Of a stretch of DNA of 64,000 bases, positions 5,054-59,586 are shown in pieces. The position numbers were made by a program, and so were the translations under genes. The stretch is taken from contig DATIWG010000051.1 of NCBI GenBank assembly GCA_035519555.1, forward strand, positions 130,520 through 194,519. The letters are read 5' to 3'. The DNA comes from Nitrosotalea sp. GTDB taxonomy: Bacteria > Methylomirabilota > Methylomirabilia > Rokubacteriales > CSP1-6. Under the pieces are notes generated by a model. It had not been told where the DNA came from. It saw only the letters and a list, made by a program, of their open reading frames with translations, and did not search any database. Numbering within the stretch: the first letter of the stretch is position 1; every line of letters starts with the position of its first letter.

Positions 5054-6175
5054 ATGACGGACGCCACCTCCGCAGGCCCGCTCAAGCGCACCCCGCTCCG
5101 CGACGTGCACGTCAAGGCGGGCGCCAAGATGGTTCCCTTCGGCGGCTGGGACATGCCGGTGCAGTACCGCGGGATCATCGAGGAGCATCGGGCGGTGCGC
5201 CGGGCGGTCGGCCTGTTCGACATCAGCCACATGGGTGAATTCGAGGTGCGGGGCCCGGATGCCCTGGCCGCGGTCCAGCGACTCTGCACCAACGACGCCT
5301 CTACGCTCGAGATCGGTCAGGTGCAGTACGCCGCCCTCTGCTATCCGGAGGGCGGGATCGTGGACGACCTGACGATTTACCGCTTGGCAACCGACCAGTT
5401 CATGCTCGTGGTCAACGCCTCGAACATCGACAAGGACTGGGCGTGGGTGACCTCGCACAGCGTGGGTCGCGCCGAGTGGAAGAACCTGAGCGATGAAACC
5501 GCACTGCTCGCGGTGCAGGGGCCCCGGGCGGAGGGCCTCGTGGGTCGGCTCGCCGATCAGGACGTCACACGGATCGGCTACTACCGCTTCGCTCGTGGCA
5601 CGGTGTCAGGCGTGCCGGCCATCATCTCGCGCACCGGCTACACCGGCGAGGATGGCTTCGAGCTCTACATCTCCGCCGGGCAGGCCGAGCGGCTCTGGGC
5701 GGCTCTGATCCAGGCCGGCCAGGCCGAGGGCCTCCAGCCCATCGGTCTGGGCGCGCGCGACACCCTGCGGCTCGAGATGAAGTACGCGCTCTACGGCAAC
5801 GACATCGACCAGACCACCAACCCGCTGGAAGCCGGACTCGGCTGGGTCGTCAAGCCCGCCAAGGGCGACTTCATCGGGCGCGAGGCCATCGAGGCGCTCC
5901 GCGCCCGCGGCGTGGCCCGCCGGCTCGTGGGCTTCGAGATGGCGGAGCGGGCGGTTCCGCGTCACGGTTACCGGCTCATGGTGGGCGGGGCGCCGGCCGG
6001 CGTGGTCACCTCGGGCTCGTTCGGTCCGTCGGTCGAGCGCTCGATCGGCATGGGCTACGTGCCGACGGCGCAGGCGGCGGTCGGCAGCGAGCTGGCCGTC
6101 GAGATCCGCGGGGCCACCCACGCCGCCCGCGTGGTGAAGACGCCCTTCTATCCCTCGCACACCAAGAAGGCCTAG
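5054..6175 (+). CDS. gcvT: Glycine cleavage system aminomethyltransferase (T protein)
   Basis: 373 aa. LKRTPLRDVHVKAGAKMVPFGGWDMPVQY...GLFDISHMGEFEVRG...RTGYTGEDGFELY is canonical GcvT. Confidence 0.95.
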   Translation: MTDATSAGPLKRTPLRDVHVKAGAKMVPFGGWDMPVQYRGIIEEHRAVRRAVGLFDISHMGEFEVRGPDALAAVQRLCTNDASTLEIGQVQYAALCYPEGGIVDDLTIYRLATDQFMLVVNASNIDKDWAWVTSHSVGRAEWKNLSDETALLAVQGPRAEGLVGRLADQDVTRIGYYRFARGTVSGVPAIISRTGYTGEDGFELYISAGQAERLWAALIQAGQAEGLQPIGLGARDTLRLEMKYALYGNDIDQTTNPLEAGLGWVVKPAKGDFIGREAIEALRARGVARRLVGFEMAERAVPRHGYRLMVGGAPAGVVTSGSFGPSVERSIGMGYVPTAQAAVGSELAVEIRGATHAARVVKTPFYPSHTKKA

Positions 6176-6186
6176 GAGAGGAGTCG

Positions 6187-6579
6187 ATGGCGAACGTTCC
6201 GACGGAGCTCAAGTACACGCGCGAGCACGAGTGGGCGAAGGTGGAGGGCGATCGTGCCCGCATCGGCATCACCGCGTTCGCCCAGGAGCAGCTCGGCGAC
6301 GTCGTCTTCGTGGAGCTGCCCAAGGTGGGCGCGAAGGTCACCGCGCTCAAGACCTTCGGGGTCGTGGAGTCGGTGAAGGCGGTCTCCGACCTCTTCGCGC
6401 CGGTCTCCGGTGAGGTGGCGGAGGTCAACGAGGCGCTGCCCAAGAATCCCGAGCTGGTGAACAGCGATCCCTACGGGAAGGGCTGGATGCTCGTGATCCG
6501 CATGAGCAACCCCAAGGACGTCGACGGGCTCATGAGCGCCGCCGACTACCAGAAGCTCACCGCCGACGGCGCGCACTAG
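6187..6579 (+). CDS. gcvH: Glycine cleavage system H protein (lipoyl carrier)
   Basis: 130 aa. YTREHEWAKVEGDRARIGITAFAQEQLGDVVFVELP...VESVKAVSDLFAPVSGEV contains the lipoyl-lysine motif ESVKA. Confidence 0.95.
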   Translation: MANVPTELKYTREHEWAKVEGDRARIGITAFAQEQLGDVVFVELPKVGAKVTALKTFGVVESVKAVSDLFAPVSGEVAEVNEALPKNPELVNSDPYGKGWMLVIRMSNPKDVDGLMSAADYQKLTADGAH

Positions 6580-6597
6580 GCCGGAAAGGCAGCCCGC

Positions 6598-7941
6598 ATG
6601 CGCTACATCCCCAACACCCCCGCCCAGCAGAAGGACATGCTGGCGGCCGTCGGCGCCTCGTCCATCGAGGACCTGCTCGTCCGCATCCCGGCCAAGGCGC
6701 GGCTGTCGCGACCGCTCAACCTGCCGAGCGCGATGGCCGAGACCGACCTGGTCCGCCACCTGCAGCGCATGGCCGGGCTCAACGCGGGCGCGGATGAATA
6801 TGCGTGCTTCCTCGGGGCGGGCTCCTACGATCACGCGATCCCGAGCCCGATCAACCACCTGATCTCCCGCGGCGAGTTCTTCACCGCCTACACCCCTTAC
6901 CAGCCGGAGGCCAGCCAGGGCACGCTCCGGTCGATCTTCGAGTACCAGACCATGATGGCGGAGCTCACCGGGATGGACGTGGCCAACGCCTCCATCTACG
7001 ACGGCGCATCCTCCCTGGCCGAGGCCGCGCTGATGGCGCACTCGGTGACCGGGCGCGACACCCTCGTGATCTCGCGTGGGGTGAACCCGCTCTACCGCCA
7101 GGTGGTCGAGACCTACGTGGAGGGCCCCGGGCTCAAGATCAAGTCGGTGCCGCTCGGCGACGGGGTCACCGACGTGGACGCGCTTCGCAAGACGCTGTCC
7201 CGGCACAGCGCGGCGGTGGTGATCCAGTACCCGAACTTCTTCGGCTCGCTCGAGGAGGTGCGCTCGATCGCGGACATCGCCCACGAGGCGGGCGCGCTGC
7301 TGGTCGTGGTGGCCGACCCCGTGAACCTCGGCCTCCTGACTCCCCCGGGCGCCGCCGGCGCCGATATTGTGGTGGGCGAGGGGCAGGGGCTGGGCGTGCC
7401 GATGAGCTTCGGCGGCCCGAATCTGGGCGTGTTCGCGGCCAAGCAGGAGCTGGTGAGGCGGATGCCGGGGCGCCTGGTGGGCGCCACCGTGGACGTGGAT
7501 GGCCAACGGGGCTTCGTGCTGACCCTGCAGACGCGCGAGCAGCACATCCGTCGCGAGAAGGCCACCTCGAACATCTGCACCAACGTGGCGCTGTGCGCGC
7601 TGATGGCCACCATCTACGTCTCGATCCTGGGCAAGCGCGGGCTCCGCAAGGTGGGCGAGCTCTCGACCGCAAAGGCCCACTACGCGGCGCGCGAGCTCAC
7701 CAAGATCCCCGGGGTGTCCCTGCGCTTCGCCGCGCCCTTCTTCAAGGAGTTCACCCTCCAGCTCCCGAAGTCGCCGGAGCGCGTGGTCAAGCGGCTGATG
7801 AAGGACCGCCTGCTGGCCGGCGTGCCGCTCAAGGGCTTCGATCGCGCCTACAAGGACTGCCTGCTGGTGGCGGTGACCGAGAAGCGCACCAAGGAAGAGA
7901 TCGACGCCTACGCGGCCGCGCTGGCCGCGGCGGTGGCCTGA
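6598..7941 (+). CDS. gcvPA: Glycine dehydrogenase (decarboxylating) subunit 1
   Basis: 447 aa. [19 protein letters not shown]...[18 protein letters not shown]...[17 protein letters not shown] is typical of the N-terminal P-protein subunit. Confidence 0.95.
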
Positions 7942-7948
7942 AGCCGCC

Positions 7949-9418
7949 ATGCACGCCGCCAAGCCCGCCTACGACAAGCTGATCTTCGAGCTGTCCGCGC
8001 CCGGCCGCTTCGCCTACTCGCTGCCCGAGAGCGACGTGCCCGACAGCGATCCCGCCGCGCTCCTGCCGGCGAGGCACCTGCGGGAGGTCCCCGCCGAGCT
8101 GCCCGAGGTTTCGGAAGTCGATGTGATCCGTCACTACTCGCGTCTGTCGCAGATGAATTACGGGGTGGACACGCACTTCTACCCGCTCGGCTCCTGCACC
8201 ATGAAGTACAACCCGAAGATCAACGAGGACATGGCGCGCCTCGGCGGCTTCGCGCGCCTGCACCCGCTGGCTCCGGAGGCGGCGAGTCAGGGCGCGCTCG
8301 GGCTCATGTGGGAGCTGGCGCGGGACCTCGCGGAGATCTCCGGGATGGACGAGGTGTCGCTGCAGCCCGCGGCGGGGGCCCAGGGCGAGCTGGCCGGCGT
8401 GCTGATGATCCGCGCATATCACCTGGCGCGGGGCGAGCGACGGCACAAGGTGCTGATCCCGGACTCCGCGCACGGGACTAACCCCGCCTCCACCGCGCTG
8501 GCCGGCTTCTCGGTGGTCGAGCTCAAGTCCGAGGCCAACGGCGACGTGGACCTGGTGGATCTCGAGCGGCACCTGGACGAGGACGTGGCCGCCTTCATGA
8601 TCACCCAGCCCAACACGCTGGGCCTCTTCGAGTCGAAGATCCACCAGATCACCGAGATGTGCCACTCGAAGGGCGTGCAGGTCTACATGGACGGCGCCAA
8701 CTTCAACGCCATCCTCGGCATCACGCGCCCGGGCGACCTCGGCTTCGACGTCTGCCACTTCAACCTGCACAAGACCTTCACCACACCGCACGGCGGCGGC
8801 GGTCCCGGCTCGGGGCCGGTGGGCATCAAGGCGCACCTGGCCCCGTTCCTGCCGACCCCGGTGGTGGTCAAGTCCGAGGGCGCCTACGGGCTCGACTGGA
8901 GCCGGCCGCAGTCCATCGGCAAGCTGCAGGCCTTCTGGGGCAACTTCGGCATGCTGGTGCGGGCCTACACCTACATCCGCACCATGGGCCCCGACGGGCT
9001 CCGATCGGTCTCGGAGAACGCGGTGCTCAACGCCAACTACATCCTGAAGCGCCTCGAGGGCGACTACGACCGCTCGGCCCCCGGCCCCTGCATGCACGAG
9101 TGCGTGCTCTCGGCCCGGCGCCAGAAGAAGCTCGGGGTGTCCGCGATGGACATCGCCAAGCGTCTGCTCGACCTCGGCTTCTACGCCCCGTCGACGTACT
9201 TCCCGCTGATCGTCGAGGAGGCGCTGATGATCGAGCCCACCGAGACCGAGTCCAAGGAGACGCTCGATCAGTTCTGCGACGCCATGATCCAGATCGCGCG
9301 CGAAGCCGAGAAGGATCCGGACCTGATCCACGAGGCGCCGGTGACGACGCCGGTGCGCCGCCTGAACCAGACGCTGGCCGCCCGCCAGCCCGTGCTGAGG
9401 TGGCGCCCGTCTCGGTGA
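7949..9418 (+). CDS. gcvPB: Glycine dehydrogenase (decarboxylating) subunit 2
   Basis: 489 aa. [10 protein letters not shown]...[13 protein letters not shown]...[23 protein letters not shown] contains the PLP-lysine region of GcvPB. Confidence 0.95.
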
Positions 9419-17799: not shown

Positions 17800-18222
17800 A
17801 TGCCATCGGTCACTCGCGTGCGCGTCCGCTACAAGGACACCGACACGATGTCGGTCGTCTACTACGGGAACTACCTCACCTATTTCGAGGTCGGTCGCGT
17901 CGAGTACCTTCGCGAGTACGGCTGGCCGATGTCGCGCGTGAACGAGCGTGTACACCTGCCGGTGGTCGAGGCGTTCGTGAAGTACGTCAAGCCGGCCCGC
18001 CTCGACGATCTGCTCGAGATCATCTCACGGGTGAGTGAGCGCCGGCGCGCGAGCTTCCGCTTCACCTACGAGATCCGCAACGAAGCGAACGAGCTGGTGG
18101 CCACCGGGCACACCCTGCACGCCTGCTGGAATCCGGCCACCGCCCAGATGATTCCCATCCCCGACTGGCTGAAGGAGATCATGCCCGATGCCGACCTCGA
18201 CCCCGTCGCGACCCGTCGCTGA
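17800..18222 (+). CDS. Acyl-CoA thioesterase, YbgC/4HBT family
   Basis: 140 aa. VRVRYKDTDTMSVVYYGNYLTYFEVGRVEYLRE is the YbgC/FadM-type catalytic-Asp motif. Confidence 0.85.
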   Translation: MPSVTRVRVRYKDTDTMSVVYYGNYLTYFEVGRVEYLREYGWPMSRVNERVHLPVVEAFVKYVKPARLDDLLEIISRVSERRRASFRFTYEIRNEANELVATGHTLHACWNPATAQMIPIPDWLKEIMPDADLDPVATRR

Positions 18223-19864
18223 CCGGAAGCCCCGCCCGATCGCGGATATCGCGCGTGATCTGGGCCTGGCCCCCGACGAGTGGATGCCCTACGGTCGCGA
18301 CAAGGCCAAGGTGCAGGTGGGGGCCCTGGCCGCCCGCCGCGACCGTCCGGACGGAAAACTGGTGGTGGTCTCCTCGATCACGCCCACGCCCGCGGGCGAC
18401 GGCAAGACCACGATGACGATCGGGGTCGGACAGGCGCTGCACCGGATCGGGGCGCGACCGGTCATCGCGCTCCGCGAGCCGTCGATCGGGCCCACCCTCG
18501 GGATGAAGGGCGGTGGCACCGGGGGTGGCCGCGCGCAGGTCGTCCCGATGGAAGACATCAACCTGCACTTCACCGGCGACTTCCACGCGATCACCTCCGC
18601 CCACAACCTCCTCGCCGCCGCCATCGACAACCACGTCCACCACGGCAACCCCCTCGGTATCGATGTGCGCCAGGTGGCGTGGAAGCGGATCCTGGACGTC
18701 AACGACCGCGCCCTGCGCAACGTGGTGGTGGGCCTCGGGGGCCGGATGGACGGGGTGCCGCGCGAGGCGGGTTTCCTGATCACGTCGGCCTCCGAGATCA
18801 TGGCCGCCCTGTGTCTGGCCGACGATCTGATGGATCTCAAGCAGCGGCTGGGCCGCATGCTGGTGGCCCTCACCGCGGACGGCAAGCCGGTGGCCGCGGA
18901 CGCGCTCGGGGTCACCGGCGCGATGACCGCGCTTCTGCGCGACGCGATCCATCCGAACCTCGTGCAGACCATGGAGGGCACGCCGGCACTGGTGCACGGC
19001 GGGCCCTTCGCGAACATCGCCCACGGCTGCAACTCGGTGCTGGCCACCCGCCTGGCCCTGAAGCTCGGGGACGTCTGCCTCACCGAGGCGGGATTCGCCA
19101 CCGATCTCGGCGCCGAGAAGTTCTTCGACATCAAGTGCCGCCTCGCCGGCCTCAGGCCTGACGCGGCCATGATCGTGGCGACCGCCCGGGCGCTGAAGTA
19201 CCACGGCGGCGTCCCGGTGCCCGAGCTCGACCGCGAGAACGTCGCCGCGCTGACCACCGGGCTCGACAACCTGGAGGCCCACGTGGAGGCGGTGCGTCAG
19301 TTCAAGGTGCCCGTGCTGCTTGGCCTCAACCGATATCCGTCGGACACCGAGCGGGAATACGCGGCGGTGAAGGAGCGTTGCGCGCGGCTCGGGGTGGAGG
19401 CCCACGTGGCCGACGTGTTCGGCCGCGGCGGCGAGGGCGGGGAGGAGCTGGCCCGCGGGCTCCTCGCGCTGCTGGCCCGCGAGCGCTCCGCGTTCCAGCC
19501 GCTCTACGCCCTCGACGATCCGATCACGGTGAAGCTCGACACCATCGCCCGGCGCATCTACGGCGCGGACGGCGTCGAATATCCCAAGCGGGTGGAGCGT
19601 CAGATCGCCCAGGCCGAGAGTCTCGGCTACGGGAGGCTACCGATCTGCGTGGCGAAGACGCAGCGCTCGCTGTCCGACGATCCGTCGCTCCTGAACCGAC
19701 CCCGCGGGTTCAAGATCACGGTCAACGACGTGACCATCTCCGCGGGCGCCGGGTTCCTAGTCGCGATCACCGGCGACATCACCACGATGCCGGGCCTCCC
19801 GCGCCGACCCAACGCGGAGAGGGTGGACGTGACCCCGGACGGCAGCATCACCGGGCTATTCTGA
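18188..19864 (+). CDS. fhs: Formate-tetrahydrofolate ligase
   Basis: 558 aa. PTPAGDGKTTMTIG...GPTLGMKGGGTGGG...NLHFTGDFHAITSAHNLL...GGPFANIAHGCNS is canonical FTHFS. The first ATG at 18188 overlaps the thioesterase by 35 nt. Confidence 0.95.
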   Translation: MPTSTPSRPVADRKPRPIADIARDLGLAPDEWMPYGRDKAKVQVGALAARRDRPDGKLVVVSSITPTPAGDGKTTMTIGVGQALHRIGARPVIALREPSIGPTLGMKGGGTGGGRAQVVPMEDINLHFTGDFHAITSAHNLLAAAIDNHVHHGNPLGIDVRQVAWKRILDVNDRALRNVVVGLGGRMDGVPREAGFLITSASEIMAALCLADDLMDLKQRLGRMLVALTADGKPVAADALGVTGAMTALLRDAIHPNLVQTMEGTPALVHGGPFANIAHGCNSVLATRLALKLGDVCLTEAGFATDLGAEKFFDIKCRLAGLRPDAAMIVATARALKYHGGVPVPELDRENVAALTTGLDNLEAHVEAVRQFKVPVLLGLNRYPSDTEREYAAVKERCARLGVEAHVADVFGRGGEGGEELARGLLALLARERSAFQPLYALDDPITVKLDTIARRIYGADGVEYPKRVERQIAQAESLGYGRLPICVAKTQRSLSDDPSLLNRPRGFKITVNDVTISAGAGFLVAITGDITTMPGLPRRPNAERVDVTPDGSITGLF

Positions 19865-39523: not shown

Positions 39524-40513
39524 TCAGGCGAAGGCGGGACGGACCTCCTTCGCGATCAGCTCGAGCTCACGCATGATGTGCCGGTGCGGCATGCCCGGGA
39601 AGAAGACGCGGCAGATGAGGTGGGTCATGCCGTACTCGGTGACGAAGGGCTTGAGCGCGCGGATGACCTGATCGGGACCCCCGATGAGGAAGCGATTCTT
39701 CATCAGGCCGTCGAGATCGGTGGCGATGGAGGCGTCGATGAACGGATGGCGCCAGCCTCCCGCGTACTCCTTCCGGTACGAGATCATGATGTGCTTCTCG
39801 GCGAGCTCGCGCGCCTCGCGGTCGGTGTCGGCGATGATCACGTCACGGGTGAGCGCCCACTCGGTCACGGCCTCCGTCTTGCCCGCCGCGCGCCGATTGG
39901 CAATGAACTGCTGCTTGCCCGCGAGCAGACGAGGCAGATCCGCGGTGGGCCCCGGCACCCAGTTGTCGGCCAGCGTGGCGGCGCGGCGGAGGGTGATGTC
40001 CCCCCAGCCGCCGATCCAGACCGGCGGATGCGGACGGGTGACCGGCTTCGGCTCGAGCCGACCCTCGACCTGATAGTAGGTGCCGCGGAACGAGACGGAC
40101 TCCTGGGTCCACAGCCCGTTCATGATCGCGAGCTGCTCCTCGAAGCGTGCGCCCCGCTTCTCGAGCGCAGCCCCGTAGAGCGCGAACTCGTCTGGCTTGT
40201 ACCCGATCGCGATGCCGAGCACGAAACGGCCGCCCGATATCACGTCGAGCATGACGGTGTCTTCGGCCAGCCGGACCGGGTGGTAGAACGGCGCCACCAG
40301 GATGTCGGTGCCGAGGCGTATCCGGCTCGTGCGGGTGGCGAAGCCGGCCAGCACCGGCAGGGGCGACGGCCAGTAGTGGTTGGTGACCGAGTGGTGCTCC
40401 TCCATCCATACCGAGTCGAAGCCGAGGTCCTCGGCGCGTACGACCTCTTCGAGGGCGTCCCGGTAGTAGTGTCCACCCTCGATCGGGATGAAGCCGACCT
40501 GGAGTCCCGCCAC
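39524..40513 (-). CDS. LLM-class (luciferase-like) flavin-dependent oxidoreductase
   Basis: In-frame GTG at 40513, 2 nt after the tautomerase stop. AEDLGFDSVWMEEHH...LGTDILVAPFYHPVRLAEDTVMLDVISGGRFVLGIAIGY is the LLM signature. Confidence 0.85.
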   Translation of the reverse strand: MAGLQVGFIPIEGGHYYRDALEEVVRAEDLGFDSVWMEEHHSVTNHYWPSPLPVLAGFATRTSRIRLGTDILVAPFYHPVRLAEDTVMLDVISGGRFVLGIAIGYKPDEFALYGAALEKRGARFEEQLAIMNGLWTQESVSFRGTYYQVEGRLEPKPVTRPHPPVWIGGWGDITLRRAATLADNWVPGPTADLPRLLAGKQQFIANRRAAGKTEAVTEWALTRDVIIADTDREARELAEKHIMISYRKEYAGGWRHPFIDASIATDLDGLMKNRFLIGGPDQVIRALKPFVTEYGMTHLICRVFFPGMPHRHIMRELELIAKEVRPAFA

Positions 40514-41056: not shown

Positions 41057-41145
41057 GGCGCGGATTATTGCATCGGACGCAACTACGGGCAAGCATGCAA
41101 CTAGGGCGAGGGCGCAATCATGGCCGCGTCGACTCGCGTGCTAAG

Positions 41146-42732
41146 ATGACCGCCGTGGAAGCCTTCACCGCCGAGGAGCGGGCCGCCCTCGCGCCCTACT
41201 TCACCAACATCGAGGGGCCGGTCTTCGCGCTGATCAATCTTCCGGAGGTCGTCAAGGGCGCGCTGTTCGCGCGCTACTCCCGCTCCGCGAAATCGCTGCG
41301 CCGGCTGTTCCTCGACGAGTTCCTGGAGCAGGCCCGGGAGCCGGCGACGGAAGGGGCCATCGGCACCACCCGCGCCGACCAGCTCTACGAGCGCGTGCTC
41401 AGCGAGTACGGCGACGACTCGGTGGCCCAGTTGGGCGGCGTGCACCTGGCCTGCGAGGGTGCGTCCAACATCCTGACCAAGGTCCTCGAGTGGGGGCGGC
41501 TCATGGCCTACCTCGAGCAGTCCACGCGCTACGTGCCCTACACGGATCGGCCAGGGGGCCGCTTCAAGTATCACGTGCCGGCCGAGCTCGACGGTCATCC
41601 CCTTCGGGCCCGGTACGTCGAGGTGCTCGACCGCGCCTTCGACACCTACGCGCGCTGGATCGATCCGATGCGCGAGTACTGGATGGCCCGCTTCCCGCAG
41701 CCGACGGGAGAGAGCGACGCGGCCTACCGCATGACCATCCGCGCGAAGGCCCTCGACAGCCTGCGGGGGCTCCTGCCCGCCGCCACCCGCTCGAACGTCG
41801 GCATCTTCGGTACCGGCCAGGGTTACGAGGCGCTCGTGCTCCGCATGCGGGCGCATCCGCTCCGGGAAGTCCGCGACTACGCTGAGCTCATGTTCGTCGA
41901 GCTCGACCGGGTGATCCCGGCGTTCCTCAAGCGCCTGTCTCGCCCCGAGCGGGGTGGAGTGTGGGCCCGCTATCTCGAGGACACCCGGGAAGCCACCGCT
42001 GCCGTCGCGGCCCGGCTGCTGCAGGGCGTCGACGCCGAGCCTCGGCCCGAGGTCACGCTCACCGACTTCGATCCGGAGGGCGAGGTCAAGGTGGTCGCCG
42101 CCGCCCTGTACGCCGCCTCGCGGCTGCCCGACGATCAGCTCCTCGCGGTGGCCCGCAAGCTCTCGGTCGAGGAGCGGCGGCAGGTCCTCGAGGCCTACGC
42201 CGGCCGCCGCGAGAATCGGCGGCACAAGCCGGGGCGGGCCTTCGAGCGTACCGCGTACCGCTTCGACGTGTTGGGAGACTACGGGGCGTTCCGTGATCTG
42301 CAGCGGCACCGCCTGCTCACGCTCGAGTGGCAGACGCTCTCGACACGTCACGGCCACGTCACCCCCGACGAGCTCGCGGACGCGGGCGTGCTCGCCGACT
42401 GGACCCGCGTGATGGAGGACTCGGCGACGCTCCACGACGCGCTCGCCGCCGAGATGCCCGCGGTCGCGTCGTACGCGGTGGCCATGGCGTATCGCGTGCG
42501 GTTCTACATGGAGCTGAACGCGCGCGAGGCGATGCACATGATCGAGCTGCGCACCGCGCCCCAGGGCCATCCGGCCTATCGGCGAATTTGCCAGGCCATG
42601 CATCGCCTCATCGCGGAGCAGGCCGGACACCGTGCGCTCGCGGAGGCGATGGTACACGCCGACCACTCGGGCGCGGAGGGTGGGCGTCTCGATGCGGAGC
42701 GGGCGGCGGAGCGCCGGCGTCGGGGGAGCTGA
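41146..42732 (+). CDS. ThyX-like FAD-dependent thymidylate synthase family protein (long, two-domain form)
   Basis: ALFARYSRS in the first half and FRDLQRHRLLT (an RHR motif) in the second half match Thy1/ThyX-type folds. The length of about 528 aa is unlike the canonical ThyX of about 250 aa. Confidence 0.7.
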   Translation: MTAVEAFTAEERAALAPYFTNIEGPVFALINLPEVVKGALFARYSRSAKSLRRLFLDEFLEQAREPATEGAIGTTRADQLYERVLSEYGDDSVAQLGGVHLACEGASNILTKVLEWGRLMAYLEQSTRYVPYTDRPGGRFKYHVPAELDGHPLRARYVEVLDRAFDTYARWIDPMREYWMARFPQPTGESDAAYRMTIRAKALDSLRGLLPAATRSNVGIFGTGQGYEALVLRMRAHPLREVRDYAELMFVELDRVIPAFLKRLSRPERGGVWARYLEDTREATAAVAARLLQGVDAEPRPEVTLTDFDPEGEVKVVAAALYAASRLPDDQLLAVARKLSVEERRQVLEAYAGRRENRRHKPGRAFERTAYRFDVLGDYGAFRDLQRHRLLTLEWQTLSTRHGHVTPDELADAGVLADWTRVMEDSATLHDALAAEMPAVASYAVAMAYRVRFYMELNAREAMHMIELRTAPQGHPAYRRICQAMHRLIAEQAGHRALAEAMVHADHSGAEGGRLDAERAAERRRRGS

Positions 42733-51820: not shown

Positions 51821-53230
51821 ATGGACCAGAGAATCCTGGAGTTCATCGGCGATCTGCGGCGGGCCGAGATGCGCATCTCCCCGAGCGAGGCGCTGGACGC
51901 GCTCACCGCCTCCACCGAGATCGGGCTGGAGGACCGTGAGACGTTCAAGAGCGCCCTGGCCACCACCCTGGTCAAGGAGTCGCGAGACCTGGTGACCTTC
52001 AATCGCATCTTCGATCTGTACTTCCTCGATCTGCAGGCGCTCGGCGAGGGCCTCAAGAAGGCGCTGGGGCCCGAGGATCCCAAGATCCAGGAGATGCTCG
52101 ACCGGCTCACGTCCGAGGCCGGGATGGAGCTCGACGACCTCACCGAGCTGATGCTGAGCGGGCAGGGCAGCGACATGGAGATGGCCATTCGCCAGGAGGG
52201 CCAGGGCACCGGCCTCGAGCGGCTGATGTACTTCCTGCAGGTCGGCTACTTCTCCCGCCGCATCTACGACAAGTTCGACTGGGAGGCTATCGAGCGGGAT
52301 CTGAGCCGGATCATGCAACTGCTCGAGGCCAAGGGGCTCGATCCGGGCATGCTCGCGCGCATCCGGAACTATCTCGATCTGCGCCTCGAGGCGTTCCGGC
52401 GCATGATCCGCCAGCACGTGGAGCGCGAGCTGGAGCGTCGAGCCTTCCGCCAGGGGGAGAAGCTGACCCGCGAGGTGCTGACGGACAAGCCGCTCTTCGC
52501 GCTCTCCGCCGACGAGGTCGCCCAGATGAAGGCGGTGGTCGCGCGCCTGGCCCGCAAGATCAAGGACGCCCTCGCCCTCCGCCAGCGCCAGGAGGAGAAG
52601 GGGCGGCTCGACTCGCGCCGCACGATCCGCCAGAGCCTGCAGTACGGGGGCGTGCCGATGGAGGTGCGCTTCCGCCGGCGCCACCGCGAGAAGCCCAAGC
52701 TGATCACCCTCTGCGACGTGTCGGACTCGGTGCGCAACGCCTCGCGCTTCATGCTGCAGCTGGTGTGGAGCCTGCAGGAGTGCTTCTCGCGCGTCCGCTC
52801 GTATGTCTTCGTGTCCGAGATCGCGGAGGTCACCCAGGCCTTCAACACCTATCCGGTTGACACCGCGATCGACTGGGCGCTGAAGGCCTCCTCGGTCGAC
52901 TATCACTGCCGCTCCGACTTCGGCTACGCGTTCAGCCGCTTCGTCCGCACCGAGCTCGAGACGCTGGACCGCAAGACCACCGTGCTCATCCTGGGTGACG
53001 CCCGCAACAACTACAACGACCCGCAGGCGTGGGCCATCCGGCAGATCCGGGAGCGCGTCAAGGGGGTCATCTGGCTCAATCCGGAGGGACAGTGGGGCTG
53101 GGGCATCGGGGACAGCGTGATGCCGCTCTATACGCCCTCGTGCGACATCGTGAAGGAGTGCCGCACGGTGGGGCAGCTCGTCCAGGTCGTCGACCAGTTG
53201 GTCCATTCGTGGTGGCGCCGCGGCCGCTGA
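51821..53230 (+). CDS. VWA-domain protein, CoxE-like
   Basis: 469 aa. The N-terminal helical region is ILEFIGDLRRAEMRISPSEALDAL. The C-terminal VWA domain has the MIDAS-like CDVSDSV, plus VLILGDARNN and IWLNPE. Confidence 0.85.
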   Translation: MDQRILEFIGDLRRAEMRISPSEALDALTASTEIGLEDRETFKSALATTLVKESRDLVTFNRIFDLYFLDLQALGEGLKKALGPEDPKIQEMLDRLTSEAGMELDDLTELMLSGQGSDMEMAIRQEGQGTGLERLMYFLQVGYFSRRIYDKFDWEAIERDLSRIMQLLEAKGLDPGMLARIRNYLDLRLEAFRRMIRQHVERELERRAFRQGEKLTREVLTDKPLFALSADEVAQMKAVVARLARKIKDALALRQRQEEKGRLDSRRTIRQSLQYGGVPMEVRFRRRHREKPKLITLCDVSDSVRNASRFMLQLVWSLQECFSRVRSYVFVSEIAEVTQAFNTYPVDTAIDWALKASSVDYHCRSDFGYAFSRFVRTELETLDRKTTVLILGDARNNYNDPQAWAIRQIRERVKGVIWLNPEGQWGWGIGDSVMPLYTPSCDIVKECRTVGQLVQVVDQLVHSWWRRGR

Positions 53231-53880
53231 TCGTCCTGCTGCTGTCGGGTCTCCCGCTCGTCTCGCCGATCGCGGCCGGTCCGGCCTCCGCCGCGGAGTG
53301 CGTCGTGCTCGAGGACTTCTCCCGGGGTCCGGTCGACGCGCTCCCGCCCGACTGGAAGCCGCGCAAGGAGGAGGGGCGCTCGGTGTACTCGATCCGCGAG
53401 GAGGACGGGCGCCGGTTCCTCCACGCCGAGTCGCGGGGCCTCGGGATCCAGGCTGGTCGCGAGGTGGCCTGGGACCTCGAGACCTATCCGATCCTCGCCT
53501 GGTCGTGGCGGCCGGTCGAGTTCCCGAAGGGCTCCGACGAGCGTAGGTCCTCCACCAACGACAGCGCGGTCTCGGTCTACGCGCTGTTCCCGGGCTCGCT
53601 CGGCTCCGTGAGGAGCGTCAAGTACGTCTGGAGCCGGGTCGTGCCGGTCGGCACCCATCTCACCTCGAGCGCAGGCACTACCCAGGTGCGGGTGTTGCGC
53701 AGCGGTCCCGACAAAGCTGGGCAGTGGGTCGAGGAGATGGCCGACGTGCGGGAGGACTACCGTAAGTACTTCGGGGATGCGGCTCCCAAGCCCGCCGGGA
53801 TCGCGGTCCTCACCGACGCCGACGACACCAGGAGCAGTGCGCGGGGCGACTACGCCACCTTCCGCGTGTGCAAGCCCTGA
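53209..53880 (+). CDS. DUF3047-family secreted protein
   Basis: GTG at 53209 (or 53212) overlaps the VWA gene by 22 nt, and a signal peptide follows. LEDFSRG...PPDWKPRKEEGRSVYSI...DSAVSVYALF...KYVWS...IAVLTDADDT matches the DUF3047 pattern. Confidence 0.75.
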   Translation: MVAPRPLIVLLLSGLPLVSPIAAGPASAAECVVLEDFSRGPVDALPPDWKPRKEEGRSVYSIREEDGRRFLHAESRGLGIQAGREVAWDLETYPILAWSWRPVEFPKGSDERRSSTNDSAVSVYALFPGSLGSVRSVKYVWSRVVPVGTHLTSSAGTTQVRVLRSGPDKAGQWVEEMADVREDYRKYFGDAAPKPAGIAVLTDADDTRSSARGDYATFRVCKP

Positions 53881-53939
53881 GGGACGGCGCGCGTGGCTGA
53901 CGCCGATTCGTTCGAGGCCCTCTGGGGCTACCCTCCCCA

Positions 53940-53960
53940 CCGCCGAGCGCTTCTCGGCGG
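53940..53960 (+). terminator. Hairpin downstream of the DUF3047 gene (possible terminator)
   Basis: CCGCCGAG-CGCTT-CTCGGCGG forms an 8-bp perfect stem 60 nt after the stop at 53880. There is no U-tract. Confidence 0.35.
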
Positions 53961-54034
53961 CGATTCCGGGCTGGACCTTTCCCAAGAGCTCGCGCATGAT
54001 CTGGAGGGAGGATCGAGATGCCGGAGGAGACGCC

Positions 54035-54562
54035 ATGAGCGACGACGAGTTCCTGGACCCGACCGATTCGGTGGCGGTCCCTCGCAAGCGCGCGCGACGC
54101 CTCGAGAGTCTCGAGGGCAAGACCATCACGTTGCTCGACATCTCGAAGGCCAAGGGCAACCATCTCCTCGATCGGGTGGAGGAGCTGCTCCGCGAGCGGG
54201 CCCATCCGAAGGCCGTCTTGCGCAAGAAGAAGCCCACGTTCGCGCGTCCGGCCCCCGAGGACCTGCGCCAAGAGATCCTCAAGGACAGCGACGCGGTCAT
54301 CGAGGCCCTCGCCGACTGAGGGTCGTGCACAACGTGCAGTGTGCACGACAGCGTGTTCTTCGAGGACCAGGGGATTCCGACCGCCACCGTCATCTCCACC
54401 GAGTTCAAGCGGGCGGCGCGGGCTCAGGCCGACGCGCTCGGGGCGAGCGACCACCAGACCGTCATGGTCGCGCACCCGATCCAGCCGCTGACCCGGGACG
54501 AGGTGCGCGCGCTGGCCGATAAAGCCTTCGACGAGATCGTCGCGCGCCTGACGCGCGGGTGA
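54035..54562 (+). CDS. Predicted selenoprotein with a Sec-Gly-Ser-Cys motif (UGSC-type); in-frame UGA at 54317-54319 read as selenocysteine
   Basis: ATG at 54035 lies 6 nt after GGAGGA. ORF 53777..54319 and ORF 54341..54562 are in the same frame, with no other stop between them. The joined product is 175 aa and reads ...DAVIEALAD-U-GSCTTCSVHDSVFFEDQGIPTATVIST... A SECIS-like hairpin follows the UGA. Confidence 0.75.
54322..54349 (+). promoter_or_regulatory. Bacterial SECIS-like stem-loop
   Basis: GTCGTGCACA (54322-54331) pairs perfectly with TGTGCACGAC (54340-54349). The 8-nt apical loop ACGTGCAG contains GU. The stem begins 3 nt after the UGA. Confidence 0.65.
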
Positions 54563-55320
54563 CCCTCCTCCTCAAGCTGCTCCTGGTGCCGGGGCTGATC
54601 GCCCTGGTCACCCTGGCCGGCCGCCGCTTCGGCCCCCGCATCGGCGGCTGGCTCAACGCCCTGCCGCTGGTGGCGGGGCCGGTACTCTTCTTCCTCGCGC
54701 TCGAGCAGGGCGACGCCTTCGTGGCGCGGGCCGCCGAGGCGACCCTCGCTGGCCTCGCTGCGGTGGCCGCGTTCGCGGTGATCTACTCCTGGACGGCGGT
54801 GGCTGGACGGTGGTGGGTGTGCGTGCTCGTGGGATGGGCGGCCTTCGGCCTGCTGACGATCGCGCTCCAGGCGGTGCCCTGGACGGCCGTCTCCGGGCTG
54901 GCGCTGGCCGTGGCTGCCTTCGGCGTCGCGCGCTTCCTGCTCCCGCGCTTACCGGAGGCCCTGCCCCCCGCGGGAGCGCCCGCATGGGATCTGCCGCTGC
55001 GCATGGTCTCCGCAGTGGTGCTGGTGCTGCTGGTCACCGGGCTGGCCGCCTGGCTCGGGCCGCGGCTCTCCGGCGCGATCACGCCGTTCCCGATCGCCAC
55101 CACGATCCTGCTCGCGTTCACGCACGCCCAGCAGGGTGCGCCGGCCGCGGTGGGCTTCCTGCGCGCGTTCCTGCCCGCGATGTGGGGCTTCGCCCTCTTC
55201 TGCTTCGTGCTGGCCTGGGGCGTGGTGGGCCTCGGGCGCGATCTCGCGTTCCTGCTCGCCTTCGCCCTGAGCCTGCTCGCCCAGGGCGTCGTGTGGATGG
55301 GGCTCGAAGGCGCTCGCTAG
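54559..55320 (+). CDS. Multi-pass integral membrane protein of unknown function
   Basis: The GTG start overlaps the selenoprotein stop (GTGA). 253 aa, almost entirely hydrophobic segments. I recognise no family. Confidence 0.65.
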   Translation: MTLLLKLLLVPGLIALVTLAGRRFGPRIGGWLNALPLVAGPVLFFLALEQGDAFVARAAEATLAGLAAVAAFAVIYSWTAVAGRWWVCVLVGWAAFGLLTIALQAVPWTAVSGLALAVAAFGVARFLLPRLPEALPPAGAPAWDLPLRMVSAVVLVLLVTGLAAWLGPRLSGAITPFPIATTILLAFTHAQQGAPAAVGFLRAFLPAMWGFALFCFVLAWGVVGLGRDLAFLLAFALSLLAQGVVWMGLEGAR

Positions 55321-55823
55321 TCGGGGAACCGCCAGACGCGGCCCTCGGCCGGCTCGTCGGTCAGCGTGAACTGGGGCAGGGCGAAGTCGGCGGAGAGGTC
55401 CTGGAAGATCACGCGGACTCGCTTGCCGATCGCCACGTTCTGCTCGGGCTCGGGGCGGAACTCCAGCGTGACCAGGTTTGCGATGACGCGCAGGGCCTCG
55501 TCGGGCGTCGGCACGCCGCGCTGCTCATCGAGCTCCACCAGCACCACCGCGTAAGGCGTCCACTCCTTGAAGCCGGGCTGGATCGCGTGGTGCACGACCT
55601 CGTACGAGTAGATGTGCCCGCGCCCGCTCACCGGCTTCCATTCCCACTCGAGCGACGTGCACCACGGGCAGCCGTGGCTCGGTGGGTAGCGCATGAGCCC
55701 GCACGCCTTGCAGGCGCGGAGCATCAGGCGATGGTTCGCGCGGGCCAGCTTGAAGTGCTCGCGCCACTCCGAGTCGTTCTCCGGGATCACCAGGTTCATG
55801 CCGCGGTACTCGACGGAGGCCAT
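55317..55823 (-). CDS. Zn-ribbon OB-fold protein (DUF35 family)
   Basis: CKACGLMRYPPSHGCPWC zinc ribbon followed by an OB fold (GRGHIYSYEVVH...YAVVLVEL). It lies directly downstream of a thiolase-like gene, which is the usual pairing. Confidence 0.85.
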   Translation of the reverse strand: MASVEYRGMNLVIPENDSEWREHFKLARANHRLMLRACKACGLMRYPPSHGCPWCTSLEWEWKPVSGRGHIYSYEVVHHAIQPGFKEWTPYAVVLVELDEQRGVPTPDEALRVIANLVTLEFRPEPEQNVAIGKRVRVIFQDLSADFALPQFTLTDEPAEGRVWRFPD

Positions 55824-55827
55824 TGGG

Positions 55828-57042
55828 CTAGTTCCTCATGATCAGGGCGGAGCCGGTCGGCGGCATCGCCCAGCCGAGATTCATGGTGATGCGAGCGTCC
55901 TTGACCTGGCGGCACTTGCCCGGCGAATAGTCGTAGCTGTGCTTGCCGTCTTCCCAGCCCGGGCAGTAGTCGTCTACCTGGCCGCGGAGCTGGCGGACGT
56001 TCTCGATCACCATCGAGATGCCGTGCGTGTAGCCCTCGCAGAGATGGCTCCCCGAGGTGTTGTTCGGCCGCTTGCCGCCGAGCTCGATGATGCCGCTCGA
56101 GACGTAGCGGCCGCCCTCGCCCTTGGGGCAGAAGCCGTACTCCTCGAGCTGGAGCATGGTGGTGAAGGTGAACGCATCGTAGGAGCCGGTGACGTTCACG
56201 TCGTCCGGCTTGATGCCGGCCTGGCCGAACACGATGTCCTTCGCGTGATAACCCGCCACCCGGGAGATCGGCCCGTGGGCCCAGTGGAAGTCGGTGCGCG
56301 GCTTGTTGACCCGGCCTGCGACGCCCATGATGTAGACGGGCTTTCGGCGGAGGTCGCGCGCACGCGCCGCGCTCGTCACGATGAGGGCGGTGGCGTTGTC
56401 GGTCTCCAGACAGCAATCCAGCAGGTGGAGCGGCTTGCAGATCCAGCGGGAGGCCAGGACGTCCGCCACCGTCACGCGATCCTTGAGGAACGCCTTCGGG
56501 TTCTGCGACGCGTGCTTGCTGTGAGCGACCCGCACGTGGGCCACCTGCTCGGACGTCGTGCCGTACTCGTACATGTGGCGCATGAAGGTCGGCGCGAAGT
56601 TCTGGCCGGCGCTACGCATGCCGAAGGGCACCTGGGCCAGATCGAGGCCGCGCACCGGCTGGGCGGCCCGCGCGCCGGTGCCCCCGATCCGGAAGTCCGA
56701 GTAGCCGTTCATCGAGCGGAAGATCGCGACCGTGTGGCACATCCCGGCCTCGATGGCGCCCATCGCCAGCCCGACCAGGGCCTCGGTCGAGGAGCCGCCC
56801 CCGAAGACGTCCATGTAGAAGTTGAGCCGGATTCCGAGGTCGGGCGCCACCCAGTTGGCGAACACGGAGTCGCCGCTCTGGTAGGACATCATCCCGTCCA
56901 CCGCGTCCTTGCCGAGGCCCGCGTCGCGCATGGCGTTGCGCACCGCCTCCACGGCCATGGCGCGGGTGCTGCGCGCGGACTGGCGGCTGTACTCGGTCTC
57001 TCCGACACCGACGATGCAGTACTTGTCCTTGAGCGATGCCAT
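55828..57042 (-). CDS. Thiolase-like protein (SCP-x / lipid-transfer-protein type)
   Basis: The ATG at 57042 is preceded by GGAGGA. YCIVGVGETEYSR...LLDCCLETDNATALIV...SGSHLCEGYTHG is typical of the non-specific lipid-transfer thiolases that pair with DUF35. Confidence 0.85.
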   Translation of the reverse strand: MASLKDKYCIVGVGETEYSRQSARSTRAMAVEAVRNAMRDAGLGKDAVDGMMSYQSGDSVFANWVAPDLGIRLNFYMDVFGGGSSTEALVGLAMGAIEAGMCHTVAIFRSMNGYSDFRIGGTGARAAQPVRGLDLAQVPFGMRSAGQNFAPTFMRHMYEYGTTSEQVAHVRVAHSKHASQNPKAFLKDRVTVADVLASRWICKPLHLLDCCLETDNATALIVTSAARARDLRRKPVYIMGVAGRVNKPRTDFHWAHGPISRVAGYHAKDIVFGQAGIKPDDVNVTGSYDAFTFTTMLQLEEYGFCPKGEGGRYVSSGIIELGGKRPNNTSGSHLCEGYTHGISMVIENVRQLRGQVDDYCPGWEDGKHSYDYSPGKCRQVKDARITMNLGWAMPPTGSALIMRN

Positions 57043-57088
57043 GGGGGATCCTCCGCGCCGCGACTCTACGCGAGCGCGGCGGGGGGCG

Positions 57089-58345
57089 TCAAGCCGCCGC
57101 CGGCTCGTCGCGCGGCGCGGGCGCGCGAGTGAAGGCGAGGAGGCCCAGGGCCACCGCGTTGCAGCCGGCGCTGAGCCACCAGGCGAGGCGGTAGTCGCCG
57201 GCGCGGTCGTAGATGAAGCCGGCCGCGAACGGACCGCACGCGCCCATGGAGCCGGCAAGGGCGAAGAGCAGACCGGCCAGGCTCGCGGCCTGCTCCCGCC
57301 CGAAGAAGTCGGCGACGGTGGCGGTGAAGAGCGTCGAGGCGGCCCCGTAGGCAAAACCGAAGACGAGGGAGCTGGCGTAGAGCGCCGGGAGGTCGCGGGC
57401 CTGGGCGAAGCCCAGGAACGCGGCGGCCTGCAGCGCCAGGGCCAGCGCGAGCGCGCTGCGCCGCCCGATCCGGTCCGACGCCGCGCCCATCGCGAGGCGG
57501 CCGACCATTGCGGAGGCGCCGAGCGCGCTCACCAGGGTGGTGGCCAGGAGCGGGGCGATCCCGAGGCCGCGCGCCATCGGCACCAGATGGACGAGGGGGA
57601 TGAAGACCGGGATCCAGGTGGCCGCGAAGACCCCGTAGAGCAGCCAGAACGCCCGCGTGCGCACCGCCTGGCCGACCGTCCAGCCGCGGGCCCGGCCGCG
57701 AGAGTGGCCGGCGCCGCCGGGGATCGGCTCGCCATCCGGCCGCAGGCCCATGGTCTCCGGGTCGCGTCGCATGAGCAGGGCCAACACGTTGAGGGCGAGC
57801 AGGACCGCGGCGCCGAAGACCACGTAGGCCCAGCGCCAGCCGAGCCGGCTCACCAGGACGTGGGCGATGGGGGGAAACGCGAAGGTGCCGAGGCTTCCCC
57901 CCGCGCTGGCCAGGCCGACCGCAATGCCGCGCCGGCGTGTGAACCACTTTGCGACGGTGGCGTTGCAGGGCACGTAGGCGGTGGACATGCCGAGAGCGGC
58001 GACAGTCCCGTAGAGCAGGTAGGGTTGCCAGAGCGCGCTCACGCGGCTCATCAGCGTGAGCCCGATCCCGAGGAGCGCCCCGCCGACCGAGATGACCGCG
58101 CGCGGGCCCCAGCGATCGGTGAGACGTCCGGCCGCCAGCGCGAACGCAGCGTAGACGAAGGCGTACAGGGAGAACACGCCCGAGAGGCTGGCCCGGCTCC
58201 ACCCGAACTCCCCGACGAGCGCGGCGAAGAACACGCCGAAGGCGTACTGGGTGCCGTAGGCCATGAACAGGACGAGGAAGGCCGCCGCCACCACGGTCCA
58301 CCCATAGAAGAGACCCGGCCGGCCGCCCGGGCTAGCGGCCGGCAT
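57089..58345 (-). CDS. MFS transporter (oxalate/formate-antiporter-like subfamily)
   Basis: 418 aa. FYGWTVVAAAFLVLFMAYGTQYAFGVFF...GRLTDRWGPR... with about 12 TM segments. Confidence 0.85.
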   Translation of the reverse strand: MPAASPGGRPGLFYGWTVVAAAFLVLFMAYGTQYAFGVFFAALVGEFGWSRASLSGVFSLYAFVYAAFALAAGRLTDRWGPRAVISVGGALLGIGLTLMSRVSALWQPYLLYGTVAALGMSTAYVPCNATVAKWFTRRRGIAVGLASAGGSLGTFAFPPIAHVLVSRLGWRWAYVVFGAAVLLALNVLALLMRRDPETMGLRPDGEPIPGGAGHSRGRARGWTVGQAVRTRAFWLLYGVFAATWIPVFIPLVHLVPMARGLGIAPLLATTLVSALGASAMVGRLAMGAASDRIGRRSALALALALQAAAFLGFAQARDLPALYASSLVFGFAYGAASTLFTATVADFFGREQAASLAGLLFALAGSMGACGPFAAGFIYDRAGDYRLAWWLSAGCNAVALGLLAFTRAPAPRDEPAAA

Positions 58346-59586
58346 CGTCGCGAGGCTTCGCCGTCGAGCGCTCCGTGTCCAGGATGGCAGGCAGGATCCC
58401 GGCCTGGTGCGTGCTCTCGATGCGCACGATGCGGCCGAGCCGGCCGACCGCGTCGCGGATGCGGACGGCCGCGTTGCGGCAGGTGCGGGTCCAGTTGCTC
58501 TCGTCGGTGCCCGGGGGCAGCCGGTCCTCCAGCATCTGGGTGTAGCCCATGATGATCGCGAGCGGGTTGTTGATCTCGTGGGCGGCGGCCTGCGCCAGGA
58601 GATTCACCGAGCGGAGCGACGCCGCCTCGCGCCGAGCGTCCTCACCGGCGAGGCGCTCGGCGACGTCGCGGTAGATCACGATCTCGTAGTGGCGCCCGCG
58701 GTGCTCGACGACCCGCCGGGCCCAGTCCACGGCGAGGAGGCGGCCCGTCGCGGCCTGGAAGGGCACACCCTGCGCCCGCGCGATCCCGGGGGGCCTTCCC
58801 GCGGCCGGCTCCCCGGGAACGCCCTTCGGCGCGGCGGCCGGCGGCCAGAACGACCGCGAGTCCTGGCCGAGCAGGCGCTCGCGGGGGAGGCCCGACATCT
58901 CGCAGTCCGCGCGGTTGCAGTCGAGTATCGCGTGTGTCTCCGCGTCTACGATCCGTACCGCGTCGGTGGCTTCGTCGAGCACGGCGCGGAACCGCTCACG
59001 CTCCTGGGCCAGCACGCGCCGGTCGACGATGCTCGCCATGAGCATCGCCAGGGTCGGGAGGCCGATCACGGTCATCACCAGGTAGGACGGCCAGACCTCC
59101 GCGAACATCCTGCGGCCCGGCTCGCCGAGCGAAGCCGCCGAAGGTGATGAAGAAGGTGGCGACGGCCAGGACGAAGGCGTGGTGGATGCGGACCCGCGCG
59201 GTGCCACCCGCCCACCGGTGGGCCAGCCCCGCCGCGGCGGCCACCGCGATCACGGTCACCACCCCGGCGGCCGCCCCGCTGCCGCCGAGCCAGACGCGGT
59301 ACGCGGCGGCGGCGAGCGCCGCGATCAGCCCGGCCCACCACCCCTCGAAGAGCCCGATGATCGCCACCGGGATCACGCGGCCGTCGACGAAGACGCCCTC
59401 GGCGGTCTGGATGCGCGAGATCATCAGGACGACCGCGACGCCGCCCCAGACGAGGCCGAGGACCACGGCCCAGATCGAGCGGTACCGCGGGTCGTCGGGC
59501 TCGAACCAGCCGTAGGCGAGGGAGTAGAAGAGGACGCCGGAGACGCCGATGCCGGCCGCCTCCAGCAGGTGGTGGTAGTCCATCAC
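58332..59586 (-). pseudogene. 5TMR-LYT / PAS / HisKA sensor, split by a frameshift near 59130 and lacking any HATPase_c domain
   Basis: ORF 58996..59586 encodes five or more TM helices and stays meaningful only up to ...ATFFITFGGF. ORF 58332..59207 becomes meaningful from LGEPGRRMFAEVWPSYLVMTVIGL (a sixth TM). It then has a PAS-like region and an H-box (AAHEINNPLAIIMGY), and ends about 70 aa later. Confidence 0.5.

Follow-up and report, generated by a model that had tools for sequence, protein, structure and literature searches.

Selenoproteins carrying a U-G-S-C motif, in which U stands for selenocysteine (Sec), were first noted in 2007 (PMC1976440; the 'UGSC-containing protein' of Zhang & Gladyshev). 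In the Global Ocean Sampling (GOS) data they rank among the most abundant selenoprotein families, with 255 Sec forms versus 21 cysteine (Cys) forms (PMC2398784). A review from 2026 still lists the family as uncharacterized (PMC13188914), so that one of the most abundant selenoprotein families of aquatic metagenomes has been of unknown function since 2007. A gene of this kind was identified at positions 54035–54562 on the forward strand of a 64,000-nucleotide stretch of contig DATIWG010000051.1, which is referred to below as the window. Very probably, this locus is a single UGSC selenoprotein gene with a recoded UGA and a recoding hairpin resembling that of Escherichia coli fdhF; it would encode a redox protein of flavodoxin-like fold, and it has lost its usual partner gene by deletion. 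The family as such is already known and the window gene is a further member of it, so that this assignment is not novel. New are the corrected core of the selenocysteine insertion sequence (SECIS) with its fdhF-like register, the predicted flavodoxin-like fold, the near-universal, uncharacterized partner and the deletion of this partner in the lineage of the window.

The open reading frame (ORF) 53777..54319 is closed by the TGA at 54317–54319, and the same frame is then free of stops up to the TGA at 54560–54562. A sequence-only reading of this DNA had proposed that the two ORFs annotated here belong together, since they lie in one frame with a stop-free gap between them, and both the sequence and the ORF list bear this out. 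The best-supported start is ATG 54035, likewise as proposed: a Shine-Dalgarno-like GGAGGA (54023–54028) precedes it with a 6-nt spacer, and the closest homologues, which begin 'MSDDEFLDPTDS', start at the corresponding position. Reading through the internal TGA yields the expected product of 175 residues (...EALAD-U-GSCTTCSVHD...) with Sec as residue 95. The complete coding sequence, 54035..54562 on the forward strand, is backed by profile matches, by 80 collinear homologous loci and by the ratio of nonsynonymous to synonymous substitution rates (dN/dS). An in-frame TGA flanked by coding signal is unusual in the window; bracketed by strong coding signatures, it is the single real case in 64 kb. 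The only other candidate from the same scan, at 39524, was rejected as an artefact of two adjacent genes sharing one frame.

Family membership was assessed with the read-through protein, in which U was replaced by C. Both curated hidden Markov models cover the two halves: NCBIfam NF041046, 'UGSC family (seleno)protein', matches with 166.4 bits (cut-off 125) over model positions 1–147 of 147, and Pfam PF24696, 'UGSC family', with 172 bits (cut-off 25) over positions 2–171 of 172. The sequence-only reading had given the RefSeq label correctly and had suggested precisely this profile search of the translated 54035–54562, and the family literature agrees with the outcome. Homologous loci were collected with one genome per species; at least 589 were confirmed among the first 600 pattern matches, and the analyses were carried out on the best 80, all of which match across both halves. 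Together with the window these give alignments of 81 sequences, 76 of them distinct. The best 80 loci are spread over Rokubacteria/Methylomirabilota, Binatia, Gammaproteobacteria, Alphaproteobacteria, Chloroflexota, Myxococcota, Acidobacteriota and Actinomycetota, and include the cultured alphaproteobacterium Sulfitobacter sp. M05. In the window the U/C-G-S-C motif stands at the conserved position, and residues U/C95, G96, S97, C98, C101 and H104 are invariant among 38 diverse full-length sequences. By sequence, then, the gene at 54035–54562 is a member of the UGSC family, with the same full-length match, the same invariant motif and the same strong preference for Sec over Cys as in the GOS collection; no difference is seen at the protein level. 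What sets the window apart from other members is its genomic context, in which the near-universal upstream partner gene has been deleted.

The closest genomic relatives of the window among the best 80 loci are metagenome-assembled genomes (MAGs) of Rokubacteria/Methylomirabilota, and metagenome contigs of up to 191 kb match it. One of the two closest loci (L001, DATJIR010000180.1) is labelled Verrucomicrobiia. Since this contig shows 84–86% DNA identity to the window and is collinear with both the window and Rokubacteria contigs, its label probably reflects mis-binning.

As had been predicted from the ORF structure, gene callers break the gene in two, and they do so widely. Searches with the protein returned mostly entries of about 96–100 aa that terminate exactly at '...EALAD', while the downstream segment alone has 895 database homologues, the best 120 of which are all fragments of 72–78 aa. 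For the product of the window itself, public assemblies annotate adjoining genes of 94 and 73 aa, both of which match PF24696. Standard gene callers thereby split UGSC into two 'hypothetical proteins', of which public databases contain hundreds, and the single gene given here is a re-annotation. Many downstream fragments of 72–75 aa (P0118, P0179, P0181, P0192 and others; also P0050) bear the JGI name 'alkanesulfonate monooxygenase SsuD/...flavin-dependent', which looks like a propagated mis-annotation.

The assignment of UGA 54317–54319 as a Sec codon is carried by comparison of these homologues. TGA occupies the Sec column in all 80 loci and in the window, followed in the 80 loci by G-S-C-T-[TS]-C-S-[VLM]-H-D, whereas ten natural full-length homologues carry Cys at this column; proteins that span both halves with Sec or Cys aligned at residue 95, on which the sequence-only reading had staked its claim, are thus at hand. 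The 80 codons downstream of the UGA are conserved and evolve under purifying selection, with a dN/dS of 0.04–0.15 at a synonymous divergence (dS) of 0.3–0.4 between the window and its closest relatives, and the 895 homologues of the segment likewise speak for its conservation. Across both halves the values against the two closest loci, L001 and L002, are 0.04–0.19, and the part after the UGA is as constrained as the N-terminal half. Taken together, there is strong comparative evidence for both family membership and recoding.

Bacterial recoding of UGA depends on a SECIS element, for which the element of E. coli fdhF serves as reference. Its SelB-binding upper stem-loop comprises nt 15–31, counted from the U of UGA, with the conserved nucleotides U17, G23 and U24 (review PMC8659212). 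The fdhF SECIS sequence used here is present with 100% identity in the fdhF gene of more than 5,400 E. coli genomes; in this numbering the G and U of its apical loop are nt 23 and 24, and UGCAC of the 3' arm corresponds to nt 26–30. In the window, a hairpin with the sequence CGUGCA-GUG-UGCACG was located at 54333–54347 on the forward strand (stems 54333–54338 and 54342–54347, loop 54339–54341). It occupies nt 17–31 and presents G23-U24-G25 in the loop. Its consensus is CGUGCA-GUN-UGCAYG, all six pairs form in 81 of 81 sequences, and it is the sole helix of the RNAalifold consensus.

The larger stem proposed in the sequence-only reading (see below) lies inside a conserved peptide, so that amino-acid conservation alone could produce it; the comparison was therefore made at synonymous sites. 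Codons +5 to +8 after the TGA (ACG/TCG, TGC, AGT, NTG) have zero entropy at the third position, and the rare Ser codon AGT is used in 81 of 81 sequences despite a GC content at third positions above 0.9. At the flanking residues that are invariant (E, L, A, D, G, S, C, T, E, G, P), in contrast, third-position entropy amounts to 0.9–1.8 bits. Read at the sequence level, the frozen synonymous sites are the signature of a constraint acting on the RNA. Like the fdhF element, the hairpin lies directly 3' of the UGA within the coding sequence and shares the register of G23/U24 and of UGCA/UGCAC, and SelB binding is predicted; in contrast to fdhF, the loop comprises three nucleotides (GUN) instead of four (GGUC). 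An invariant core in the fdhF register would also be useful for automatic detection of the gene.

Enforcing this hairpin in the fold of the window sequence gives a structure of 46 nt (54317..54362, forward strand; -15.3 kcal/mol), in which the UGA lies inside a lower helix that is separated from the apical hairpin by an internal loop. This may represent the full SECIS. The same 46-nt architecture with the apical hairpin is the unconstrained minimum free energy (MFE) fold of both L001 and L002. A lower helix common to all lineages was not found in the RNAalifold consensus of the 81 sequences. The lower helix is variable between lineages, a further difference from fdhF, and the element is without an Rfam model. 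In gammaproteobacterial loci (L028–L037 and similar ones) a lower helix CUGUACC / GGUAUGG is formed by codons +3/+4 and +11 to +13 after the TGA. It coincides with the rare Val codon GTA at +12, which is used in 22 of 81 sequences and suggests an additional, clade-dependent constraint at the RNA level.

Among solved structures, neither sequence nor profile searches yielded a relative of the UGSC protein. An AlphaFold2 model was made for the natural Cys homologue P0006 (53% identical to the window protein) from an alignment of 15 natural full-length forms and fragments of both halves; an earlier model based on a different alignment (A7) reached a mean predicted local distance difference test score (pLDDT) of 59 and was not used. 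The P0006 model has a mean pLDDT of 92.5 and a predicted template modeling (TM) score of 0.86. It displays five beta-alpha units, (beta-alpha)5; helix 3 (residues 96–111) carries the Sec/Cys residue at its N-terminus, directly after strand 3 (residues 87–93). A Foldseek comparison with the PDB returned flavodoxin-like folds only, with TM-scores of 0.35–0.50: flavodoxin (5wid, 4heq), lumazine synthase (2obx), CheY-type receivers (3t8y), the DHH domain of RecJ and a corrinoid-protein domain (7xcn). No thioredoxin fold was present among the top 50 hits. The model thus confidently predicts a flavodoxin-like and not a thioredoxin-like fold, and the 'likely Trx-like fold' under which the literature files the family (PMC2398784, PMC13188914; Trx, thioredoxin) is not supported by it.

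As in Trx-, peroxiredoxin- and glutaredoxin-like oxidoreductases with CxxC or UxxC, the U-x-x-C motif sits at the N-terminus of a helix. However, in oxidoreductases of the thioredoxin fold this is helix 1, whereas in the UGSC model the motif follows strand 3 of a five-stranded sandwich. With the flavodoxin-like proteins the model shares its topology and the placement of conserved residues at the C-terminal ends of strands, but this likeness is generic (10–20% identity at the TM-scores given above), constitutes no evidence of homology and is not accompanied by recognisable cofactor-binding motifs. The residues invariant in the family are, in window numbering, D35, K38, K66-P67, D94-U95-G96-S97-C98, C101, H104-D105, F124 and H147-P148-Q150. 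Mapped onto the model, the corresponding motifs (LLDISK, KPTF, ALAD-U, EF, HPIQ) would cluster at the C-terminal ends of the five strands, the usual place of an active site. Most likely, U95 and C98 form a selenol/thiol redox centre at the helix N-terminus within a dedicated pocket, and C101 may serve as relay or resolving residue. A metal site with the four ligands U95, C98, C101 and H104 was also considered, since the motif resembles CxxCxxC; all four residues would, however, lie on one helix with spacings that do not place them on one face.

Clustering of the ORFs around the best 80 loci revealed that in 75 of them a gene on the same strand stops at the beginning of UGSC or runs into it (for example L001 1241–2293, L029 4417–5991 and L080 4405–5967). 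The encoded partner has a core of about 350 residues with the invariant motifs DGLPVVPPT, EKxAxNAVMAGC, RANATIGRA, PEH and AGxFS, including an invariant Cys in 'NAVMAGC'. No relative of this core was detected in Pfam, NCBIfam or the PDB, profile searches included. In most phyla the partner also bears an N-terminal thioredoxin-fold domain with a CxxC motif (CPTC), which matches AhpC/TSA, Redoxin, ResA and StoA. The Cys-form UGSC gene P0234 of Pseudorhodoplanes, too, is overlapped by an upstream gene of 480 aa, which belongs to no Pfam family. The GOS paper describes an 'Unknown_1' domain fused to UGSC (PMC2398784), which may correspond to this partner. Two further arrangements were observed: P0064 is a product of 130 aa in which the C-terminal half of UGSC is fused directly with the partner's C-terminal end, so that some contig may have undergone a rearrangement or contain a tandem module, and in L079 (Dehalococcoidia) partner-like ORFs lie at -3342..-1327 and +266..+1378 from the TGA, with none immediately upstream.

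A partner directly upstream, a regularity found in this comparison and not part of a curated definition, is missing in the window. Window positions 52649–53923 match L001 3–1274 and positions 53938–58000 match L001 2194–6292, and L002 shows the same pattern of collinearity; about 919 bp, almost the whole partner gene, are missing from the window. What is left are a 5' remnant of about ten codons from GTG 53893 (53893–53923, forward strand), which aligns with the start of the L001 partner ORF, and a 3' remnant of about 33 codons, 'RFSAAIPGWTFPKSSRMIW' (53938–54037, forward strand), which shows 87.5% identity in tblastn to residues 319–342 of the L001 partner. Between them, 14 nt at 53924–53937 replace L001 1275–2193, and a 1-nt indel places the 3' remnant out of frame with the 5' one. 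Contigs from five separate assemblies share this gene spacing, which shows that the deletion is genuine and did not arise in assembly. A second copy of the partner is not present within the 64-kb window.

Several observations weigh against the interpretation of the locus given so far. A tRNA scan of the window found no tRNA, hence no tRNA-Sec, and a Pfam scan of its 40 larger ORFs gave no match to SelA, SelB or SelD; the support for Sec use in this lineage is at the level of phylum literature only, in which 63 selenoproteins are predicted for one Methylomirabilota MAG (PMC13188914). An Rfam search at gathering and permissive thresholds returned no matching family. The fdhF SECIS contains a bulged U17, whereas nt 17 of the UGSC element is a C paired with G31 in 81 of 81 sequences, although the bulge may be a property of the E. 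coli element and not universal. Because the hairpin is invariant, there are no compensatory changes that could prove the helix, which is consistent with the data. In the window, moreover, a perfect 10-bp inverted repeat that uses the same 3' arm gives a more stable hairpin (-17.3 versus -7.4 kcal/mol, stems alone). The fold model describes a homologue of only 53% identity with Cys in place of Sec, and the functional link to the partner consists of gene adjacency only, in a window from which the partner is missing.

For the TGA to be a true stop, the locus would have to be a pseudogene or a pair of small genes encoding 94 and 73 aa. Gene callers give exactly these two products in many assemblies and GTG 54341 could act as a start, but the TGA is retained in all 80 loci across phyla, the seven codons up to this GTG encode invariant residues, the Cys forms occurring in nature are each one polypeptide, the curated family models cross the junction, dN/dS is equally low on either side, and the junction would fall between strand 3 and helix 3 of one domain; a true stop is therefore considered extremely improbable. 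Nor is it credible, save with very low probability, that the UGA is read as Trp, Gly or Cys by near-cognate suppression or in a reassigned code. The absence of Sec machinery from the window would fit such a reading, as would the residues found at the Sec column of some full-length database proteins, namely W (P0229, P0232, P0241), G (P0235) and R (P0231, P0001); the last of these, P0001, is named UGSC (seleno)protein by NCBI and also has an internal gap of about 37 residues. However, TGA is the commonest stop in the window, where it ends 31 of 52 genes, and therefore not globally reassigned. Since translation tables 4 and 25 yield W and G for TGA, the W and G entries probably stem from gene calling and do not reflect real substitutions. 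Where Sec is genuinely replaced, the residue is Cys; synonymous freedom is sacrificed to keep a SECIS-type hairpin with G23/U24; and selenoproteins are reported to be abundant in the phylum (PMC13188914).

Within the Sec reading, a different hairpin might be the functional SECIS in this lineage. The sequence-only reading had identified the SECIS as the 10-bp stem with 8-nt loop at 54322–54349 (forward strand), with arms GTCGTGCACA (54322–54331) and TGTGCACGAC (54340–54349). This perfect stem does exist and is the MFE fold of the window sequence, and in 37 of 81 sequences, mostly of the Rokubacteria and Binatia clade, the corresponding fold has a lower evaluated energy than the smaller hairpin alone. 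Taken by itself it does not stand out from chance: the z-score for folding is -1.58, an equal or better fold is reached by 15 of 200 shuffles, and perfect 10-bp hairpins occur at three distinct sites in the window (six overlapping hits) versus a mean of 2.8 hits in dinucleotide-preserving simulations. It is also not conserved. Only 13 of 81 sequences retain the complete stem, and most relatives, the closest among them, cannot form two of its pairs; the pair between the third positions of Ser+2 and His+9 (alignment columns 24–45) is broken in 55 of 76 distinct sequences. In L001 and L002, TCC instead of TCG creates a C-C mismatch without a compensating change, TCC and TCG being about evenly used within the clade, and covariation is no better than in shuffles. 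Furthermore, the 5' arm is free at synonymous sites while the 'loop' is frozen, a pattern explained only by the smaller hairpin, and the loop G-U is at nt 18/19 and not at 23/24. The 10-bp stem is thus probably not a functional recoding element but a competing fold specific to this sequence, and it is unlikely that it has replaced the conserved hairpin at 54333–54347 in this lineage. There is a similarly small chance that the UGSC gene is an orphaned relic, functionless after the deletion and not yet decayed. Such a fate could be expected where a gene adjoining UGSC in 75 of 80 loci has been lost by a clean deletion of about 0.9 kb with frameshifted remnants. Gene, UGA and SECIS are all intact, however, and the same arrangement recurs in the contigs from five assemblies. 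The gene shows no sign of relaxed constraint, its dN/dS against L001 and L002 being not above the 0.18 found between these two partner-bearing relatives, a pairwise measure which cannot isolate the branch after the deletion. Three loci without an adjacent partner (L003, L060, L075) likewise keep an intact TGA-containing gene.

On the preferred reading, a functional selenoprotein gene with the hairpin at 54333–54347 as SECIS core, the ribosome would decode UGA 54317–54319 as Sec, and the hairpin with G23/U24 in its loop would recruit SelB with Sec-tRNA(Sec), as in E. coli fdhF. The product would be a small cytosolic protein of the flavodoxin-like (beta-alpha)5 fold. Since Cys98 follows Sec95, at the N-terminus of helix 3, by one helical turn, the two could form a selenenylsulfide / selenol-thiol couple. 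In most organisms UGSC would probably work with the upstream partner, whose invariant Cys and usually fused CxxC domain suggest a thiol/selenol relay. As the partner is deleted in the window genome, the selenoprotein may there act alone or with a copy encoded elsewhere, or may be a recent orphan. Somewhat speculatively, UGSC and the upstream gene can be regarded as a conserved two-gene, selenium-dependent redox module with UGSC as the catalytic or electron-relay subunit, of which the window would represent a natural partner knock-out. If so, this knock-out would demonstrate that the selenoprotein either works independently of the partner or relies on a paralogue at another site in the genome.

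These results make the function of UGSC more testable, through the SECIS core, the fold, the partner and its deletion together. The confident fold prediction contradicts the 'Trx-like' label, and the near-universal partner with its thioredoxin-like domain offers a handle on function. There are cultured hosts, such as Sulfitobacter sp. M05, in which the UGSC-partner pair could be deleted, and Hyphomonas neptunium is a further cultured carrier of the protein.

Immediately downstream, a gene for a predicted membrane protein of 253 aa (54559–55320, forward strand) begins with a GTG overlapping the stop of UGSC (GTGA). L001 and L002 carry the gene in collinear arrangement, and the protein has no Pfam match and belongs to no known family. 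Further along, a major facilitator superfamily (MFS) transporter gene and a thiolase-like gene are separate in the window (55828–58603, reverse strand) and in L081, whereas a single product of 838 aa combines both in L082 (9891–12407) and L083 (9540–12056). Elsewhere in the window, a protein of 554 aa (41068–42732, forward strand), about twice the usual length of ThyX, contains two stretches matching the ThyX (Thy1) domain and may be internally duplicated. The forward-strand regions 5054–9418 and 18188–19864 encode the T-protein and both P-protein subunits of the glycine-cleavage system, with an ORF of 130 aa between them and a formate-tetrahydrofolate ligase nearby; this set represents ordinary one-carbon metabolism unrelated to UGSC.

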